A program made the translations under genes and the position numbers. Of a stretch of 64,000 bases of DNA, positions 5,163 to 20,891 are shown one piece after another. This stretch comes from Gammaproteobacteria bacterium. Its GTDB lineage: Bacteria > Pseudomonadota > Gammaproteobacteria > GCA-002705445 > GCA-002716945. Location: contig JAURQW010000010.1 in NCBI GenBank assembly GCA_030835925.1, positions 17,867 to 81,866 on the forward strand. The letters run 5' to 3'. Each line of letters begins with the position of its first letter. Position 1 is the first letter of the stretch. Below the pieces are notes generated by a model. The model searched no databases. It worked only from the letters and a program-made list of their open reading frames with translations, and had not been told where the DNA came from.

Positions 5163-6225
5163 TTTAAGCAAAATTAGAGCCGTAATAGATAAACTTGATA
5201 AGCAAATCATAAAAAATCTCAATGAAAGAGGCAAGCTTGCTCAAAAAATTAAAAAAGCGAAGTCATTGTTGAATAACAATAATATTTTCCGTCCCGAGCG
5301 AGAAGCTCAAATACTCAGAAGTTTAGAAAAATCTAATGACGGTCCATTAACAAATGAAAATTTACGTTCAATATTTCGTGAAATTATATCTTCATGTCTT
5401 TCATTAGAAAAAAAACTCAAGATTAGTTGTTTAGGCCCAGAGCAATCATATAGTAATATTGCCCTTGCAAAATTTTTTGGTTCATCAGTAGATATAAATT
5501 TTTATGACTCTATAAATTCTATATTTGATGATGTTAATACTGGGAACATGGATTTTGGTATTGTTCCTATTGAAAACTCTAATCAGGGTAGCATTAAAAT
5601 TACTATAGACCGGCTGATTAAAGAAGATATAAAAATTTGTGGTGAAATTAACCTTACGATCAAACATTGCCTTTTGTCTCACTCTAAAAACCTGAGCAAC
5701 ATTAAAAAAATATATGCTCATGAACAAACATTTCTTCAATGTAATGATTGGTTAACTAAAAATATGCCTGCTGCTCAAAGAATATTTTGTTCTAGTAATT
5801 CTGCAGCTGCAAAAAAGATTAAGAAAGTTAAAAATATTGCCGCTATAGCAAGTAAAAACTGTTCTACTTACTATAAGATTCCTATTTTAAAAAATAATAT
5901 TCATGATATTGCTGATAACACAACTAGATTCATAGTAATAGGTAACCATGATATTGATATAAGTGGAGTTGATAAAACATCAATTCTTGTATCAGTTCAA
6001 AATAAAGCGGGAGCACTCAAGAATTTGCTTGAGTCGTTATCTACCAATAGAATTAGTATGAGTAAAATCGAATCAATACCAACAAAAATTAATAACTGGG
6101 AGTACATGTTTTTGCTAGATATTGATGGACATACTAACAGTAAAAATGTTTCATCTGCGCTTAAAGATATCAAAAAAAAGAGTACTTTCTATAAATTTTT
6201 GGGTTCATATCCAAAAAGTATTTAA
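5152..6225 (+). CDS. pheA: Bifunctional chorismate mutase / prephenate dehydratase (P-protein)
   Basis: N-terminal chorismate mutase helix region ([13 protein letters not shown]...[12 protein letters not shown]), PDT domain ([14 protein letters not shown]...[13 protein letters not shown]) and C-terminal ACT-like region. The track ORF opens at TTG 5146; I prefer ATG 5152. It overlaps the gyrA stop. Confidence 0.88.
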
Positions 6226-15007: not shown

Positions 15008-15060
15008 TAGCGAAGGAGGGAGTCGAACCCTCACGCACTTGCATGCAAGGGATTTTGAAT
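15008..15060 (-). pseudogene. 3' half of an interrupted tRNA-Leu(CAA): anticodon loop, variable arm, T arm and acceptor 3' strand
   Basis: Minus-strand read: ATTCAAAATCCCTTGCATGCAAGTGCGTGAGGGTTCGACTCCCTCCTTCGCTA. The T arm is GAGGG-TTCGACT-CCCTC. It is complementary to the 5' half at 20854-20891. Upstream sequence is not a D arm. Confidence 0.85.
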
Positions 15061-15061
15061 C
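15053..15061. repeat. 9-bp direct repeat TTTTGAATC at the left junction (target-site duplication or att core)
   Basis: Identical 9-mer at 20854-20862. Together the two copies correspond to the single anticodon loop/stem sequence of the uninterrupted tRNA. Confidence 0.8.
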
Positions 15062-15073
15062 ATTTTGAGTACA

Positions 15074-15097
15074 CTGTATGAATCGCAAACCCTTATA
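15074..15097. repeat. Left subterminal inverted repeat CTGTATGAATCGCAAACCCTTATA
   Basis: The reverse complement of 20826-20848 is CTGTATGAATCAAACCCCTTATA. There are 22 matching positions with two small indels. Confidence 0.8.
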
Positions 15098-15120
15098 TTC
15101 CAACACTTCTAGAACATCAA
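15092..15120 (-). promoter_or_regulatory. Candidate outward-facing sigma70-like promoter (TTGATG-17 nt-TATAAG) reading toward the tRNA 3' half and the PfkB kinase gene
   Basis: On the minus strand the -35 TTGATG is at 15120-15115 and the -10 TATAAG at 15097-15092, with a 17-nt spacer. It lies just downstream of the 28-bp repeat, the same layout as upstream of the island tRNA. AT-rich DNA yields such hexamers by chance. Confidence 0.25.
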
Positions 15121-15148
15121 AAAAAATGTTTGTGAAATGTTTGTGGTA
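15121..15148. repeat. 28-bp direct repeat AAAAAATGTTTGTGAAATGTTTGTGGTA (tandem AATGTTTGTG motif), left copy
   Basis: 27/28 identical to 20775-20802. The internal 10-11 bp motif is itself duplicated in tandem. Confidence 0.85.
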
Positions 15149-15224
15149 TATCTCTTATTTTCGCATCTTTTATCATTGATATAAATCTTAACAATTCTAA
15201 CATGAAAATATCATAAGAATAGTT

Positions 15225-15250
15225 TAAATAATCTACTTTAAGATTATTTA
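15225..15250. promoter_or_regulatory. Perfect 10-bp inverted repeat TAAATAATCT-N6-AGATTATTTA upstream of the first methyltransferase (possible operator)
   Basis: Read directly from the sequence. It lies 64-89 bp upstream of ATG 15314. There is no downstream T-run, so it is unlikely to be a terminator. A palindrome this size is only weakly significant in AT-rich DNA. Confidence 0.2.
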
Positions 15251-15313
15251 GGTATATTGGATATGGATAATAAAGTATAATTATTTCTATTTAATAAAAC
15301 TCACATAAGATGC

Positions 15314-16495
15314 ATGGATATATTAGTCAATTTTAAGCAAAACTTAAGTCTACCAAGACACTCATGGTTCAATATCAAAGAAGGATACAGTAGTCTATTA
15401 GTATCCAATATCATTGACGAACTAAATATTACTGATAAAGATCTGGTTCTCGATCCTTTTTCTGGTAGTGGAACAACAGTATTACATTGTGCTTTAAATA
15501 ATATTGAATCTATAGGTATAGAGGTAAATCCTTTTTTACACTTTTTATCAAAAAATAAATCATTAAATTTTAAAAAATCTCTTAAAGAAATTAGAAAGTC
15601 TATAGTAAATATTGATCTATCTGAGAGTTATGAAGAACCGCTACTATCTATTTCAAAAAAATTATTTGGAGGTCAACTAAAACAAGTACTTCAATTAAAA
15701 AAATATATCTCTAATATTAATGACATTAAAGTAAAAAACTTCTTACATACCGCATTTTTATGTAGTCTTGATTCTTGTAGTTATGCAAAAAAAGATGGCA
15801 ATGGATTACGATATCCAAAAAATAAAAAACCTAAAGATATCATCTTAGAATTTAATCAAAATGCATATTCAATGCTAGATGACATAGAAAAAACATGTAC
15901 TCTTAGAACACCAAGAATTATAAATAACAATACATTGAAGGAAATCACAAAGAAATCATTTAAAAAGCAATACTCAAATAAATTAAGTTTAATTATGTTT
16001 TCACCGCCTTATGCTAACTGCTTCGATTATACAGAGGTCTATAAAACAGAATTATGGTTTGGTGACTTTATTAAAAATTATAGTGAACTAAAAGTATTAA
16101 GAAACAAATCGATGTCATCACATCTTAATAAAGACTTTGCTAACATTAAATCTATTGAACTTATTAACTATATTAATAAATTAATTAATAAAAAATTATG
16201 GTCAAAAAAAATAATTCCTATGCTTAATAATTATTTTGTTGAATTTGAATTATTGCTAGAGAATTTATATGATTTACTAAAAAAAGAAAAATACTGTATA
16301 ATAGTTGTTGGTAATTCATCTTATGGAAATTGTGTAATTCCTACTGATATTATAATTACTAAGATTGCAACAAGAATTGGTTATTCATCTGCTAAAATTA
16401 ATGTTGTACGAAAACTAGGAACAAGTTCTCAGCAATATAAAAAAGTTGATAAACCAGATTTACTTCGTGAGAGTATAATTTACCTTCAAAAATAA
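15314..16495 (+). CDS. DNA methyltransferase (N6-adenine/N4-cytosine type; motif I precedes motif IV)
   Basis: 393 aa. SAM-binding LDPFSGSGTT is at nt 15452-15478 and the catalytic SPPY (MFSPPYANCFDY) at nt 16001-12. About 150 aa between the motifs and about 160 aa after them could hold a target-recognition region. Confidence 0.8.
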   Translation: MDILVNFKQNLSLPRHSWFNIKEGYSSLLVSNIIDELNITDKDLVLDPFSGSGTTVLHCALNNIESIGIEVNPFLHFLSKNKSLNFKKSLKEIRKSIVNIDLSESYEEPLLSISKKLFGGQLKQVLQLKKYISNINDIKVKNFLHTAFLCSLDSCSYAKKDGNGLRYPKNKKPKDIILEFNQNAYSMLDDIEKTCTLRTPRIINNNTLKEITKKSFKKQYSNKLSLIMFSPPYANCFDYTEVYKTELWFGDFIKNYSELKVLRNKSMSSHLNKDFANIKSIELINYINKLINKKLWSKKIIPMLNNYFVEFELLLENLYDLLKKEKYCIIVVGNSSYGNCVIPTDIIITKIATRIGYSSAKINVVRKLGTSSQQYKKVDKPDLLRESIIYLQK

Positions 16496-17196
16496 TGTTA
16501 AAACTTAATAAAATTTATAATCTTGATTGTTTAGATGGACTTTCTAAGTTAGATGATGAATCAATTGACTTGATAATAACATCTCCACCATATAATTTAG
16601 GTAATACTCATCATACTGGTACAAAAAAAACACAATCTTATGAAGATGATATGCCAGAAGTAGATTACCAAAAATGGCAGAAGCAAGTTCTTGATGAATG
16701 TTTTCGAGTTTTAACTCCTGTGGGTTCAATGATTTACCAACATAAGAATCGAATAAAAAAAGGACTTCAGATATCGCCTTACGAGTGGATATTTAAAACA
16801 AAATTTATTGTTAAACAAGAAATTGTCTGGATAAATAGGAGTCAAAATTTTGATAAAATTAGATTTTATCCCTTTACAGAGAGAGTATATTGGATGACTA
16901 AAAACAGTAAGATTAAACTCAAGAATACAATTAATAAACAGGATGTCTTTGATTGGACTGAATGGAGACCTGTAGGCACTAAGATGCAACATACGAGAGC
17001 ATTCCCAGAAAAACTGGTGTCAGATATGCTCGCAGTATTTCCAGATGCAAAAATAATATTAGATCCTTTTTTAGGTTCTGGGACTGTTGCTTATGTAGCA
17101 AAAAAACTTAAGAGAGATTATATAGGGTTTGATATTGATAAAGATTTCGTAAAACAAGCAAGATCAAGATTAAGAAAAAAAGATTTATTCGATTAA
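16495..17196 (+). CDS. DNA methyltransferase, beta-class N4/N6 (motif IV precedes motif I; N6_N4_Mtase-like)
   Basis: 233 aa. IITSPPYNLG (nt 16582-93) lies near the N-terminus and LDPFLGSGTVAYVAKKLKRDYIGFDID (from nt 17062) near the C-terminus. TAATG stop/start overlap with the upstream MTase. Confidence 0.85.
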   Translation: MLKLNKIYNLDCLDGLSKLDDESIDLIITSPPYNLGNTHHTGTKKTQSYEDDMPEVDYQKWQKQVLDECFRVLTPVGSMIYQHKNRIKKGLQISPYEWIFKTKFIVKQEIVWINRSQNFDKIRFYPFTERVYWMTKNSKIKLKNTINKQDVFDWTEWRPVGTKMQHTRAFPEKLVSDMLAVFPDAKIILDPFLGSGTVAYVAKKLKRDYIGFDIDKDFVKQARSRLRKKDLFD

Positions 17197-19869
17197 TATA
17201 ATCTTATTTTTAATTTTATTATGTTTAATTTTATCTGGGAATATTTGTTCCATATGTTTTGCAAAATAACCAAAATCATCTTTCCCTAAATTCAGAAAAG
17301 TTTCTAATTTAATGAAATTAATACCAATTAGCTTGAGTTGATCAGAAAATTCATTATTTAAACTGTCCACATAGTCTTTTGAATGTTTCTCATTAGACAT
17401 CATTATATCCAAATCTTTATTTTGATCTCTTATATATTTAATTCTTGCACAACATTTTTCAAAAGATTTATTATCAACATTTTCACAAATAGTAATTCCC
17501 CATAGAAACTCAACACGATTTATCTCTTTTACATTTTTCAAGACATTCATAGAAAAATTATATGGGAACCATGTAATATTATTCATTTTTTTTAGCATGT
17601 TAATAATCATATACTTGAATTGTTTTTCGGTATTATTATTAGCATATCTTTGTCCTTCTGTAGTTAGAGTAATTATATTATCAGTATGGTCTCTTATCAT
17701 TCCTGCTCGATAAGCATATGGTATAAGATTATTGTCAATTTTTTTATTATGAATATCACTATATTTCTTTTTAACGTCTGATTTTGTTAATTCTTCTTTA
17801 GAAAATACCCCAATTCCTTTATCAATTAGATTTTTCCATCCAGCAAATGCCATTCGTACAATATTAAATTTTGTTTTCGAAGAAACTATCTTTTCTGTAC
17901 TAAGTGTTTTTTTTAGTAATTTTATTTTTCCAGAATTTAATTTTGCAATTTCAAGTCTAATATTCTTTGAAATATTCTGCATGTTAATATCTTTATGATA
18001 AGATTTTACCTTGATTTTTCCACCTCCATTAGGGGTAGCAACTGATGTTGATAAATTAATCTTATCAATTTCATCTTCTAAACTTTTATCATGCGCTTTG
18101 ATTGCTTCAATTATTTCAAAAACATGTAAGAACTTTTTCCGATTATATTTTTTATCATATTTATCAATAATTATAGGAATAAATATTTTAGCAATCTTAT
18201 TTGGTCTATCTTTAGGTATTCTGAGACATCTTCCTACTGCTTGAACAATATCTATAACAGATTGTCTTCTTTCCGCGAATACTACACAATCTACATCTGG
18301 CACATCTATTCCTTCAGTAAGACATTTTGCATTAGTTAGAACTGCTTTTTTGGAATTCCTGAATTCTGACATTATACCTTTTCTAGTATCATCAGTTTTC
18401 TTTGAACTTATGGAGTCTACAAAATAATCCTTATTCTTAGTCAAATGGGATATTGCATTTGCTTTTGTATTTGCAGAGTTAATGCTATTAGTAAATACTA
18501 ATATTTTATTAGTGGAATAATTATCAATAAGTTTTTTAATTCCATCTGCAATTATCAAATCAAAGTTTTGAAACTTTTCGTTCTCAATTAAAGTATGTTT
18601 ATCAAGATGTAATCTACCTAAATCATCATCATATATTTCAATAATTATTTCATAATCAGCAATTACCCCTGCGTCTATGGCATCTCTGAATGAGTAGTGA
18701 TGGAATTCATTCCCATAATCATCTGTATCATCCATAGAATAAAAATCTAAACTCTCTATTTCTGCACTTGCTTTAATATTAGGTTTTAAAACTCTTGGTG
18801 TTGCAGTCATGAATAATTTCTTCTTAGTTAGTACATTAAAGCATGATTGATACTTCCTTTTTGCTACTCCGGCGGTTCTATGCGCTTCATCAATAAATGT
18901 TAAATCAAACTGAATTGATTTAGATGCTTCTAAGACTTTTGGTAAAGAATCATACGTAGATAAAATAACTATTGAGTCATCTATTTCAAGGAAATTTTTT
19001 ATTACTTGAGGATCAGTTGTATAATATGTGCCTAATTCACTCAGATCAATATCATAACGATCATCATCACTATCTGGTTTAAAAGAACTAACAACACAAA
19101 GAAATTTAAATTCTTTAGATCTGTATTTCAACCATTCATCTATAGTTTGTTTTACAAGATAGATACTTGGTACAACGAAAAGCGTTTTTTTACACTCAAG
19201 TTCTTCTTTTATCAGTAAAGAAGTAATAGTTTTACCTGTTCCACATGCAGAGATAAATTTTCCTTTATTTGTATGTTTAAATCCATCACATACATCATTT
19301 ACAGCAGTAGTCTGGTAAGATCTTGCTTCAAGTTTGTTACGTATGATTTCTTTATCTTGAATATATGCGGTAAGATTTTGGAAAAATAACTTATTTAGAA
19401 TATCTAAATCATTAAAAAGAATCACTCTAGGTATTTTTTGATTGTCTTTAAAGAATTCATGAGATATAGTTTTTACATTCGAAAATACATACCATCCGTC
19501 AAGTCTCTGACCTACTTGATATGATGTCATAAGTTTGTCAGCACCAATCTTTCTGTTCGACATAAACTTTGTCTGATAATTAAATATACTACCATCAGAG
19601 TGTATAACAATACCGTCACATCCACGTTCTTTTCCACTTTTAGGTTGTAAATTATATTTATTTTTTAGACTTTCTGGTATTTCATCAAAATGGTAGATTT
19701 CTTTTATTTGATATTTATCCTTATTTAAAAAAAAGTAAATGTAATTAAAATATTCAAATAAATCACCTTTATATGTTGTATCACCAATATTAGATAACTT
19801 ATCTTCTAATTCAGAAAAATTATTAAACTTATTTTTAATAAAGAAATCTTTACATTTAATAGTATTCAT
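17185..19869 (-). CDS. Mrr-like (PD-(D/E)xK variant) nuclease fused to an SF2 DEAH helicase/translocase (Type ISP / HsdR / Res-like), with an uncharacterised ~300-aa C-terminal region
   Basis: 894 aa. The N-terminus reads KGDLFEYF...ERGCDGIVIHSDGSIFNYQTKF (Mrr-type FE...D-G-[IV]...Q-x-K). Helicase motifs are ARSYQ, ACGTGKT (I), FIDEAHR (II), MTATP (III), TEGIDVPDVD (V) and QAVGRCLR (VI). The 3' end overlaps the MTase gene convergently by 12 bp. Confidence 0.85.
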   Translation of the reverse strand: MNTIKCKDFFIKNKFNNFSELEDKLSNIGDTTYKGDLFEYFNYIYFFLNKDKYQIKEIYHFDEIPESLKNKYNLQPKSGKERGCDGIVIHSDGSIFNYQTKFMSNRKIGADKLMTSYQVGQRLDGWYVFSNVKTISHEFFKDNQKIPRVILFNDLDILNKLFFQNLTAYIQDKEIIRNKLEARSYQTTAVNDVCDGFKHTNKGKFISACGTGKTITSLLIKEELECKKTLFVVPSIYLVKQTIDEWLKYRSKEFKFLCVVSSFKPDSDDDRYDIDLSELGTYYTTDPQVIKNFLEIDDSIVILSTYDSLPKVLEASKSIQFDLTFIDEAHRTAGVAKRKYQSCFNVLTKKKLFMTATPRVLKPNIKASAEIESLDFYSMDDTDDYGNEFHHYSFRDAIDAGVIADYEIIIEIYDDDLGRLHLDKHTLIENEKFQNFDLIIADGIKKLIDNYSTNKILVFTNSINSANTKANAISHLTKNKDYFVDSISSKKTDDTRKGIMSEFRNSKKAVLTNAKCLTEGIDVPDVDCVVFAERRQSVIDIVQAVGRCLRIPKDRPNKIAKIFIPIIIDKYDKKYNRKKFLHVFEIIEAIKAHDKSLEDEIDKINLSTSVATPNGGGKIKVKSYHKDINMQNISKNIRLEIAKLNSGKIKLLKKTLSTEKIVSSKTKFNIVRMAFAGWKNLIDKGIGVFSKEELTKSDVKKKYSDIHNKKIDNNLIPYAYRAGMIRDHTDNIITLTTEGQRYANNNTEKQFKYMIINMLKKMNNITWFPYNFSMNVLKNVKEINRVEFLWGITICENVDNKSFEKCCARIKYIRDQNKDLDIMMSNEKHSKDYVDSLNNEFSDQLKLIGINFIKLETFLNLGKDDFGYFAKHMEQIFPDKIKHNKIKNKIILIE

Positions 19870-19905
19870 CTAAATATTTTGGCATATTATGCATTACAAT
19901 GATAT

Positions 19906-20600
19906 ATGATCAAATTTAAAAACTTAGAACTTATTAAATCCTTATATGCTTATCAGAATGTTAAAATTACTGAGATTGTTGATTCTTATGACGACGCTAT
20001 CTTGTGTAGAAAAATATTAAGTAAAAGTTATAATTGGAGTTTACATGATACTCAACAACTCAATAATATATTAAAAAACACAAGTCATCATTCAGATATA
20101 AGAAATAATAAAGAATATGCGTTTAATATAATTACTAACTGGTTAATAGAAGACTTAATTTATGAAACACTAAGCATAGATTATGGAGTTACAAAAAAAT
20201 AGGATCTGATAATAATAGAAAACTACTGAATGGAAGAAATATTACTTCTGAACCTGATCTCTTAATCTCTTTAAAGAATAATATTATGATTGAAATTATT
20301 GCTAATTATCCCATAAAAGATTATTCATCATTTTGGGAGAAAGAGTTATATTTTGATTTAAGAGATAATAAAATGAATTCATTGCTAGATAGATGTAAGA
20401 CAAATAGAGTATTGATTATTGGCGTTGTTGTTGAAAAAAAACAGATTTTTATTATGGAGATTAATTCTGATACATCATTTCAACAAATCAGAAGTGAATC
20501 AAATTTTGGTTTCAAAAAAACATCTAGAATACACTTTCATGGCAGAAAAATAAAGTTGTATCCTATCTCGTCTCTTAATACAATTATAAGAAATATCTAA
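19906..20600 (+). pseudogene. Hypothetical ~231-aa ORF interrupted at an A7 tract (halves 19906-20202 and 20166/20286-20600); weak PD-(D/E)xK-like pattern
   Basis: ORF1 ends ...GVTKK-TAG immediately after A7 (20193-20199). The frame of ORF2 is open from 20166, and a -1 shift in the A-run joins them: ...VTKKIGSDNNRKLLNGRNITSEPDLLISLKNNIMIEIIANYP... The pattern E(LIEDL)...PD...IEI is reminiscent of restriction nucleases but has no clear lysine. Confidence 0.5.
20193..20199 (+). other. A7 homopolymer / A_AAA_AAA slippery heptamer directly followed by TAG
   Basis: In ORF1 frame the codons are aca aaa aaa tag. A -1 slip, or an A7-to-A8 change, continues in the frame of 20286-20600. Confidence 0.6.
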
Positions 20601-20637
20601 ATACCACATATCTTTTTTACTATTCAATAAAAACTAA

Positions 20638-20721
20638 TACCGATAATCAGAATCGAACTGATACTCTCTTGCGAGAATCGGATTTTGAATCCGACGCGTC
20701 TACCTATTCCGCCATATCGGC
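20638..20721 (-). tRNA. tRNA-Leu (anticodon CAA), intact, carried inside the island
   Basis: Minus strand: GCCGATA-TG-GCG-GAATAGGTAGA-CGC-G-TCGGA-TTCAAAA-TCCGA-TTCTCGCAAGAGAGT-ATCAG-TTCGATT-CTGAT-TATCGGT-A. It has the class II long variable arm. All stems pair (1-72 is G-U). No CCA is encoded. Confidence 0.9.
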
Positions 20722-20732
20722 ATTAGTCATTT

Positions 20733-20760
20733 ATCATACCAAAAACACAAACATTTTGAA
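20733..20760 (-). promoter_or_regulatory. Candidate promoter of the island tRNA-Leu (TTCAAA-16 nt-TATGAT)
   Basis: On the minus strand the -10 TATGAT at 20738-20733 lies 11 nt upstream of tRNA position 1. The -35 is at 20760-20755 and overlaps an inverted AATGTTTGTG motif copy (20746-20757). Confidence 0.35.
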
Positions 20761-20774
20761 AAGGCGTATGCACG

Positions 20775-20802
20775 AAAAAATGTTTGTGCAATGTTTGTGG
20801 TA
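20775..20802. repeat. 28-bp direct repeat AAAAAATGTTTGTGCAATGTTTGTGGTA, right copy
   Basis: 27/28 identical to 15121-15148. An additional inverted copy of the motif (CACAAACATTTT) is at 20746-20757 and a partial copy (AATGTTTGG) at 20915-20923. Confidence 0.85.
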
Positions 20803-20825
20803 ATTATTGTCTAATACTCAATAGG

Positions 20826-20848
20826 TATAAGGGGTTTGATTCATACAG
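20826..20848. repeat. Right subterminal inverted repeat TATAAGGGGTTTGATTCATACAG
   Basis: Reverse complement matches 15074-15097 (see the left copy). Confidence 0.8.
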
Positions 20849-20853
20849 TTTTG

Positions 20854-20891
20854 TTTTGAATCCCTCGTGTCTACCATTCCACCACTTCGCC
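20854..20891 (-). pseudogene. 5' half of the interrupted tRNA-Leu(CAA): acceptor 5' strand, D arm, 5' anticodon stem and loop
   Basis: Minus-strand read: GGCGAAG-TG-GTG-GAATGGTAGA-CAC-G-AGGGA-TTCAAAA. It pairs with the 3' half at 15008-15060. Positions 20854-20862 are the 9-bp repeat TTTTGAATC. Confidence 0.85.

Follow-up and report, generated by a model that had tools for sequence, protein, structure and literature searches.

How can a DNA island that encodes no recombinase come to sit at one exact point inside a tRNA gene, and what takes the place of the tRNA that it breaks? The question is raised by a stretch of 64,000 nucleotides, which we call the window (contig JAURQW010000010.1 of assembly GCA_030835925.1), from a marine gammaproteobacterium that has not been cultured and whose genome measures about 1 Mb at 31% G+C. 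Here, an island of 5.8 kb (15062-20853) interrupts the anticodon loop of the resident tRNA-Leu(CAA) gene on the minus strand. We consider it rather probable that this island is a non-autonomous integrative cassette of the tyrosine-recombinase type, which would be mobilised in trans and may still be moving. The assembly under study (G000) is a metagenome-assembled genome (MAG) of 0.92 Mb that is 83% complete, and the genomes compared with it are likewise MAGs, in which mobile DNA is often missed. In the reference set, the order to which it belongs consists of a single family with 37 species.

A broken tRNA gene and its empty sites

The island is bounded at both junctions by the 9-bp direct repeat TTTTGAATC. 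The left copy, which comprises the anticodon loop plus stem (15053-15061, plus strand), belongs to the 3' part of the resident tRNA (positions 30-83, 15008-15061, minus strand); the right copy (20854-20862, plus strand; repeat family D7) belongs to the 5' part, which remains behind the native promoter region (20854-20891, minus strand). Joined via one core, the two halves form an 83-nt tRNA identical to the intact gene of the sister species G007, where the syntenic order reads pfkB - tRNA - orf65 - orf146 - queA - tgt. The same empty site, with an intact tRNA, is found in three metagenome contigs of the same species (L108, L115 and L109), which encode an identical orf146 protein and have flanks that are 99-100% identical, and the core is present there, as in G007, in a single copy. 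Two further metagenome contigs (L111 and L121) carry the occupied allele. The alleles differ by exactly the island plus one core copy, and since contigs of the same species hold either of them, the island is a presence/absence polymorphism within one species. Both states also occur in the MAG of another species, G019: one contig ends with the intact tRNA, the other ends with the host 5' half, the right arm and the island tRNA, and the host upstream sequence is common to both. We use GCAAGGGATTTTGAATCCCTCGTG as the sequence of the empty bacterial attachment site (attB). A known example of integration into an anticodon loop is phage HP1.

What happens to the broken gene? The sequence 3' of the host 5' half is no tRNA 3' half, and the shared core of 9 bp is too short to rebuild the tRNA. 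The island itself carries a tRNA-Leu(CAA) gene (20637-20722, minus strand), which was called by ARAGORN and scores 59.7 bits with the Rfam tRNA model; by these two methods, the assembly has no other intact gene for this tRNA. Apart from one stretch of 43 nt at 81%, the island tRNA shares nothing alignable with the resident one, and it is preceded by a promoter-like site of its own (TTCAAA-16-TATGAT with TG, 20733-20762, minus strand). In the mechanism that we propose, the island would have entered the resident gene by recombination between a 9-bp core in the attachment site of the element (attP) and the identical anticodon-loop sequence. Because only 9 bp are shared, the host tRNA would not be rebuilt, and the island's promoter-equipped tRNA-Leu(CAA) would make up for the broken gene, a mode known as 'tRNA-dependent integration'.

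The tRNA genes show some further peculiarities. Within the genus, the resident tRNA-Leu(CAA) at the pfkB-orf65 locus falls into five unrelated sequence types (L031-L038, nine species) and is inverted in G004, G006, G008 and G009; the other genera of the family have one nearly invariant type. The island tRNA of G022 (L116 4773-4854) is 95% identical to the resident tRNA of G003, which suggests that resident tRNA genes may descend from island-borne copies. Where related tRNAs can be compared (20637-20722 of the window versus L030 3334-3419, and L116 4773-4854 versus the G003 resident), the differences are almost only compensated changes in the acceptor stem (GCCGATA/TATCGGT versus GCCACCA/TGGTGGT, and GGCGTGG versus GGCGAAG), with G1-U72 and A73 kept in all. 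Selection to escape tRNA-targeting nucleases is one possibility for these changes.

Attachment-site-like ends around unrelated cargo

The initial annotation had described the ends of the island as resembling an attachment site more than transposon ends, and the layout that it gave is exactly what we find. On the left, the core (15053-61) is followed by the 12 nt ATTTTGAGTACA (15062-73), an inverted repeat (IR-L, CTGTATGAATCGCAAACCCTTATA, 15074-97), 23 nt and a 28-bp repeat (15121-48); on the right, a 28-bp repeat (20775-802) is followed by 23 nt, the partner inverted repeat (IR-R, TATAAGGGGTTTGATTCATACAG, 20826-48), the 5 nt TTTTG and the core (20854-62), all read on the plus strand. The two 28-bp repeats stand in direct orientation and agree in 27 of 28 positions (repeat family D3, 96%). 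The left one consists of two tandem 11-bp AATGTTTGTG units, which we propose as arm-type sites, and IR-L, which contains TGAATC as the core does, is the proposed core-proximal recombinase site. Perfect pairing in the inverted repeat is confined to its outer 11 nt (CTGTATGAATC / GATTCATACAG); the remainder pairs only with an indel of 1-2 nt, owing to which an ungapped repeat finder does not have the IR-L/IR-R pair among its 25 longest. As this AT-rich 6 kb contains 125 imperfect inverted pairs, the inverted repeat alone is insignificant, and its weight lies in its position, 3-12 nt from both junctions, and in its conservation in other genomes.

Of the 10-mer AATGTTTGTG, the 0.92-Mb assembly contains five exact copies, all of them inside the two arms; from base composition, we estimate that about four copies per genome would be expected, scattered genome-wide, and the observed ones cluster in ~190 bp. 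Genome-wide searches with the core, the motif, the 28-bp repeat and the inverted repeat showed the repeats to be unique to the island. The suggestion that the motif might be a host tRNA promoter element can be rejected from these searches, as the tandem motif lies upstream of no other tRNA or rRNA gene in the genome. An additional inverted copy proposed within the island is real (20746-55). The 'partial copy' seen outside it (20915-23, AATGTTTGG) is host DNA, which is also present at the empty site of G007 and there reads AAGGTTTGA, and we treat it as chance, one-mismatch copies of the motif numbering 90 genome-wide. An 8-bp hairpin, TGCACGAAAAAATGTTTGTGCA (20769-20790), overlaps the first unit of the right repeat; it is flagged as terminator-like on the plus strand, and its sequence is kept in G018 and G019.

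From the two junctions, the attP can be deduced as repeat - 23 nt - IR-R - TTTTG - TTTTGAATC - ATTTTGAGT - ACA - IR-L - 23 nt - repeat, and a circular form would be predicted to read ...CATACAGTTTTG-TTTTGAATC-ATTTTGAGTACACTGTATG across its junction (GGTTTGATTCATACAGTTTTGTTTTGAATCATTTTGAGTACACTGTATGAATCGC as a short reference). In this layout, the 12-nt segment ATTTTGAGTACA (15062-15073, plus strand) becomes a second, alternative core, ATTTTGAGT, plus 3 nt. The basis for this assignment is G019. The host loop of the window (GGGATTTTGAATCCC) shares TTTTGAATC with the first core; G019 has the loop variant GGGATTTTGAGTCCC, and its right junction reads ...TTTTGAATC-ATTTTGAGT|CCC, so the crossover there used the second core. 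The double core thus explains both the G019 junction and the unequal gaps of 12 and 5 nt, and it suggests that the element may have moved between hosts that differ at loop position 32.

Are these ends a peculiarity of one genome? The same arms surround unrelated cargo in five further species of the order, which belong to three genera, as well as in metagenome contigs, with a cargo that ranges from restriction-modification (R-M) systems and a HEPN-like open reading frame (ORF) to Schlafen/DUF6994, TylF and glyoxalase proteins. The repeats are therefore present in independent copies of the element, the left arm alone with four other cargos (G005, G002/L049, L048 and G049). It is 79-91% identical in G005, G002 and G009, recurs in L048 and L049, and has a diverged homologue in G049; in G009, inverted repeat, 23-nt spacer and tandem motif persist as a relic. 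IR-L is kept with 0-2 mismatches in G005, G002, L048, G009 and L050. Every left arm has two to three tandem units at equal distance from the core, and overall the tandem 11-bp units keep their position in up to seven left and five right arms. The right arm, together with an island tRNA, is found in G005, G018, G019 and G022, all of which keep the right 28-bp repeat, which in the window (20775-20802) has the same orientation as the left one; IR-R (20826-20848) is near-identical in G019. The pfkB proteins of these right-arm hosts, from three genera, are only ~49-55% identical to that of the window.

The elements, which measure 0.6-5.8 kb, fall into two types. In type A, one end carries a tRNA 3' half that rebuilds the tRNA, so that a direct repeat of 52-54 bp bounds the element; the other end is a left arm like that of the window (ATTTTGAGTA(A/C)A, inverted repeat, 23-nt spacer, tandem ATGTTTG(T/A)G units), and there is no right inverted repeat. 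This type is represented by G002 (the same element as in contig L049), with a 386-aa ORF and an N6/N4 methyltransferase, L048, with a 351-aa ORF that we read as HEPN-like from its R-x4-H motif, and G049, with a glyoxalase-family ORF. In type B, only the short core is shared with the host, and a whole tRNA-Leu(CAA) lies beside the homologous right arm. Here belong the window with its R-M system, G005 with TylF, G018 with Schlafen, DUF6994, a MutS_I fragment and a HEPN-like ORF, G022 with a C5 methyltransferase and a 270-aa ORF, and G019, whose element is cut by the contig end. The islands occupy hosts with three different resident tRNA sequences at the same anticodon-loop junction. Because these hosts span three tRNA sequences and three genera, yet the arms are alike, vertical descent of one insertion cannot explain the islands. 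In L048, two different elements stand in tandem, each with its own tRNA 3' half, an array typical of repeated integrase-mediated insertion.

The cargo of the window island itself consists of R-M genes and two small ORFs, without phage genes. A type II DNA methyltransferase of 393 aa (15314-16495, plus strand; PADLOC MTase_II 1e-73; Pfam N6_N4_Mtase) is followed by an N6/N4 DNA methyltransferase of 233 aa (16495-17196, plus strand; Pfam PF01555 1.8e-33) and, on the minus strand, by an 894-aa ResIII/helicase restriction-type enzyme (17185-19869; Pfam ResIII and Helicase_C; PADLOC REase_MTase_IIG 1e-67 over the N-terminal half). The small ORFs of 98 and 104 aa (19906-20600, plus strand) have no family match and are not kept in sister islands.

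Several other loci in these genomes deserve mention. The second element of L048 (MDSZ01187916.1, reverse complement 1591-2801) has a different arm, GACTTCGAGTTCAACAACCCCACATT, and encodes a T5orf172/MUG113-domain protein; by eye, the G018 and G022 arms look related to this one. The relic left arm of G009 (C1:465273-465354, L043), seen also in L050 and L051, lies at an unrelated locus and continues directly into a degenerate 3' fragment of tRNA-Leu, GGCAAGGGATTC; a cluster of tRNA-Ser genes, two of them tRNA-Ser(GGA), is ~2 kb away. Outside the window, close to a contig end of the assembly under study (C10:78498-80008), a distance of 1.3 kb separates two identical tRNA-Ser(GCT) genes, with an apparent photolyase-gene fragment and a long minus-strand open frame between them, as judged by eye; this pair looks like another tRNA-bounded insertion.

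The closest described system is the tRNA-dependent lysogeny of actinobacteriophages such as Fionnbharth, the cluster L phages and Gaia (Guerrero-Bustamante & Hatfull 2024, PMC10865867). In these phages, a tyrosine integrase recombines two sites, attP and an attB within a tRNA gene, that share only ~8-10 bp; the tRNA is therefore not restored, and a phage tRNA of the same isotype makes up for it. Gaia targets tRNA-Leu-CAA with a core of 8 bp, and putative arm-type sites flank the core in pairs (PMC10865867). Related phages with cores of 43-44 bp rebuild the tRNA (Boilgate versus Fionnbharth, Omega versus Gaia; PMC10865867), and the split between type A and type B is the same dichotomy. The window island shares with these phages the short core in a tRNA gene, the flanking arm repeats and an element tRNA of the same isotype. 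Unlike them, the islands are 0.6-5.8 kb long and have defence-type or accessory cargo, no phage genes and no integrase; their host is a streamlined marine gammaproteobacterium, they have two tandem cores and flanking inverted repeats, and the tRNA lies directly beside attP. Islander-type islands (PMC4383910) resemble the window family in their insertion into the anticodon stem-loop, in the displaced tRNA fragment that marks one end and in forming tandem arrays, as in L048; however, they carry an integrase and regenerate the tRNA, whereas the window island does neither. The cis-mobilizable elements (CIMEs) of streptococci (ICEberg, PMC6323972) likewise have attachment sites without a recombination module and depend on another element's integrase, but they share these sites with a known integrative and conjugative element in the same genomes and move by accretion, and no such partner is present in the MAGs here. 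Finally, the tycheposons of Prochlorococcus (bioRxiv 10.1101/2020.12.28.424599) share with these cassettes streamlined marine hosts, tRNA-sited islands, partial-tRNA repeats, arrays and a defence or niche cargo; however, they are defined by a tyrosine or serine recombinase of their own and often have replication genes, whereas the cassettes described here lack both and replace the tRNA. Taken together, the arms kept around different cargo, the exact empty sites and the match to the attP layout of tRNA-dependent lysogeny phages support the reading of the ends as putative attachment sites rather than transposon ends.

In search of the recombinase

Which enzyme would act on such ends? A lambda-type tyrosine integrase that has an arm-binding domain is the enzyme that most likely binds the inverted repeats next to the core and the 11-bp AATGTTTGTG tandem repeats on both arms. 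Because such an integrase is encoded neither in the island nor in the host assembly, it would have to come in trans from a helper phage or element. That the element lacks a recombinase, as already remarked in the initial annotation, holds against Pfam, NCBIfam and PADLOC, in which no island ORF matches a recombinase or transposase. Of the two PF00589 proteins encoded in the genome that holds the window, one exceeds the curated cut-off for XerD; the other has its best score with XerC and falls just short of the XerC cut-off. Recombinase profile searches took in all 37 genomes of the order and returned no serine recombinase (PF00239).

Beyond the Xer proteins, the PF00589 search found four P4-like integrases (in G018, G048, G045 and G012), whose readable contexts are tRNA-Glu and tRNA-Arg (G018 and G045). 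The integrase of G018 belongs to an element of ~4.5 kb at tRNA-Glu(TTC) (L101 8700-13770, G018 C3), near both ends of which the 11-bp unit GGGGGGTCAA is repeated in tandem and in direct orientation; G048 encodes an integrase and three further ORFs near-identical to the genes of this element. As helpers for the cassettes, the P4-like integrases were ruled out, since, where this could be read, they are sited at tRNA-Glu and tRNA-Arg (G018 and G045) and have different arm repeats (GGGGGGTCAA, in G018). What they do illustrate is the look of a real integrase-bearing element in the same order, with a tRNA-derived core between tandem 11-bp repeats that run in direct orientation, a layout shared with the window island.

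We also searched for the arms elsewhere. An exact-pattern scan with the left inverted repeat gave no match in IMG/VR, only G005, G002 and G009 among GTDB genomes, and four metagenome contigs, none with an integrase (the metagenome scan was a single one that required exact matches). The conserved right arm had no match in IMG/VR and none outside this genome in 400 sampled genomes of the class. In a blastn search of GenBank phages with both arms, the left one had no match and the right side only generic matches to tRNA-Leu. No autonomous element with these arms was thus found in the order, IMG/VR, GenBank phages, GTDB genomes or the metagenome scan, although MAGs often miss mobile DNA. One viral contig of 40% G+C, L106 (IMGVR_UViG_3300013094_000128), contains a 24/24-nt match to the left repeat of the window. 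Within 5735-5975, it has, in this order, degenerate copies of CACGAACATTTTT, a tRNA 3' fragment ending in CCA, a hairpin and CCACAAACATTTCACAAACATTTT, which is the match, followed by a 410-aa tyrosine integrase. This region looks like an attP, and the match, a single case, speaks weakly for the attachment-site reading.

Several observations weigh against a trans-mobilised cassette with integrase-bound ends. None of the eight islands examined (the window and seven sisters) encodes a recombinase, and the 37 genomes of the order hold only XerC, XerD and the four P4-like integrases. No match to the arms turned up in IMG/VR, GenBank phages or the 400 genomes sampled from the class; a relaxed motif scan of IMG/VR gave 20 viral contigs, and among the five whose flanks we viewed by eye, only L106 has an integrase nearby. 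No circular junction was seen in any assembly; contigs with the island methyltransferase or the 104-aa ORF are chromosomal or broken inside the arms. As for the ends themselves, the inverted repeats are 26 bp apart, far above the 6-8 bp overlap that classical core-type sites flank, the stretch of attP to the left of the core (GTTTTG) is unlike the anticodon stem, and IR-R is decayed in G005 and replaced in G018 and G022. Lastly, the motif copy at 20746-55 lies inside the spacer of the promoter-like site TTCAAA-16-TATGAT upstream of the island tRNA, which would suit a role in transcription.

Competing accounts and implications

How else could the locus have arisen? As the main rival account, the islands could be fossils, that is, decayed remnants of once-autonomous elements or prophages that have lost their integrase and are no longer mobile by site-specific recombination, with presence and absence generated by homologous recombination in the flanks and arms that persist by descent. 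Consistent with this account are the failure to find an integrase for these sites in the islands or the order, the relic arm in G009, and G005, where the right arm is 76% identical and the inverted repeat decayed although the host flanks are 94-97% identical. There is also a precedent in Prochlorococcus, where most island DNA lies outside delimited integrase-carrying elements and integrase fragments and partial tRNAs are scattered in islands (bioRxiv 10.1101/2020.12.28.424599). However, one and the same left arm of ~90 bp has been kept in five complete islands, each of which has a cargo unrelated to the others, and no integrase fragment is left in any of them. The left arm is 79-81% identical across species whose pfkB is 65-67% identical to that of the window, whereas the neighbouring intergenic DNA shows no evident similarity by eye. 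Moreover, the shared anticodon-loop junction in hosts with three tRNA sequences points to repeated site-specific events, and the alleles differ by exactly the island and one core copy. We regard it as unlikely that the islands are fossils.

A further account takes the tandem AATGTTTGTG repeats for the promoter or operator of the island tRNA and of the first cargo gene instead of recombinase sites, a function that would be compatible with an attachment role. In addition to the motif copy in the tRNA promoter spacer, it can point to the first cargo ORF, which lies downstream on the strand of the repeat in all five left arms, to L048, where an ATG follows 17 nt after ...TGTGATAAAAT, by eye an extended -10 element, and to the related viral contigs L129, L133 and L137, which share an intergenic stretch with the motif and of which L129, the one checked, has no integrase nearby. 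A consensus scan, however, found no promoter at the left repeat, the right repeat is directed away from the island tRNA, and the equal spacing of 23 nt to the inverted repeat on both arms follows no obvious promoter logic. That transcription is the true role of the repeats seems to us quite improbable. We would give about the same small chance to the idea that the anticodon loop is an integron-like docking site, at which recombinase-less defence cassettes are exchanged by a recombinase that is not their own, either host XerC/XerD or a kind missed by the profiles, and at which tRNA-carrying cassettes that become fixed replace the resident tRNA. If true, this would explain the five unrelated tRNA-Leu(CAA) sequences of the genus at one syntenic locus.

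Could the host recombinases XerC and XerD alone move the cassettes, as they do integrative mobile elements exploiting Xer (IMEX) or the pdif modules of Acinetobacter? The latter are cassettes that have inverted Xer sites at their boundaries and no recombinase of their own. No recombinase other than XerC and XerD occurs in all 37 genomes, and a dif-like site in contig C22 is in part (GGAAACTTATG) loosely similar to a portion of the inverted repeat (GCAAACCCTTAT). But the core and inverted repeats do not fit the 11-6-11 layout of dif, and the side of the XerC arm is without similarity. To our knowledge, Xer systems neither use arm-type repeats nor have a tRNA target, and we consider their involvement very improbable. 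The candidate chromosomal dif of the assembly (C22:26654-26681, GATTGTCATAA-GGAAAC-TTATGTTAAAG) aligns with the core and inverted repeats only over a short stretch; no site within seven mismatches of E. coli dif is present in the assembly.

Two last accounts are hardly credible. A transposon-type cassette, comparable to miniature inverted-repeat transposable elements (MITE) or mobile insertion cassettes (MIC) and moved by a DDE transposase with a 9-bp target duplication, would account for inverted repeats near both ends and the 9-bp direct repeat, but these inverted repeats stand not at the very ends but 12 and 5 nt inside the junctions; in type A relatives, the same left arm goes with a tRNA repeat of 52-54 bp, and the right inverted repeat is missing; insertion is always into the same nucleotide stretch of a single tRNA; and no transposase is found among the island ORFs (DDE families were not searched genome-wide). 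A split tRNA of the Nanoarchaeum type, with the resident halves expressed separately and annealed through the inverted repeats, fits the complementarity over ~22 nt between the 5'-half trailer and the 3'-half leader, but this is lost in G005, G018 and G022 and absent from type A. In addition, no promoter was found for the 3' half, which is situated downstream of methyltransferase genes in antisense orientation, the locus has a complete tRNA as a replacement, and we know of no bacterial enzyme that joins such tRNA halves.

If the island is indeed a trans-mobilised cassette, tRNA-dependent integration, described in 2024 for actinobacteriophages, would extend to very small, recombinase-less defence islands in streamlined marine Gammaproteobacteria that are almost without mobile-element machinery. 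This raises the question of which enzyme moves recombinase-less cassettes where only XerC and XerD seem present, and the deduced attP of ~190 bp and the anticodon stem-loop as attB provide concrete sequences for tracing it. For the bacteria themselves, the proposed integration offers a mechanism for the turnover of defence genes at one tRNA locus in cells with only XerC and XerD, and for the divergence of the resident tRNA-Leu(CAA) between sister species, in which a broken host gene would be replaced by the island copy. Where the cell's sole copy of a tRNA resides on a cassette, that cassette could be lost safely only by precise excision. Should tRNA-Leu(UAA) be unable to fully cover UUG codons, such a cassette would be a simple addiction device for the defence genes that it carries.

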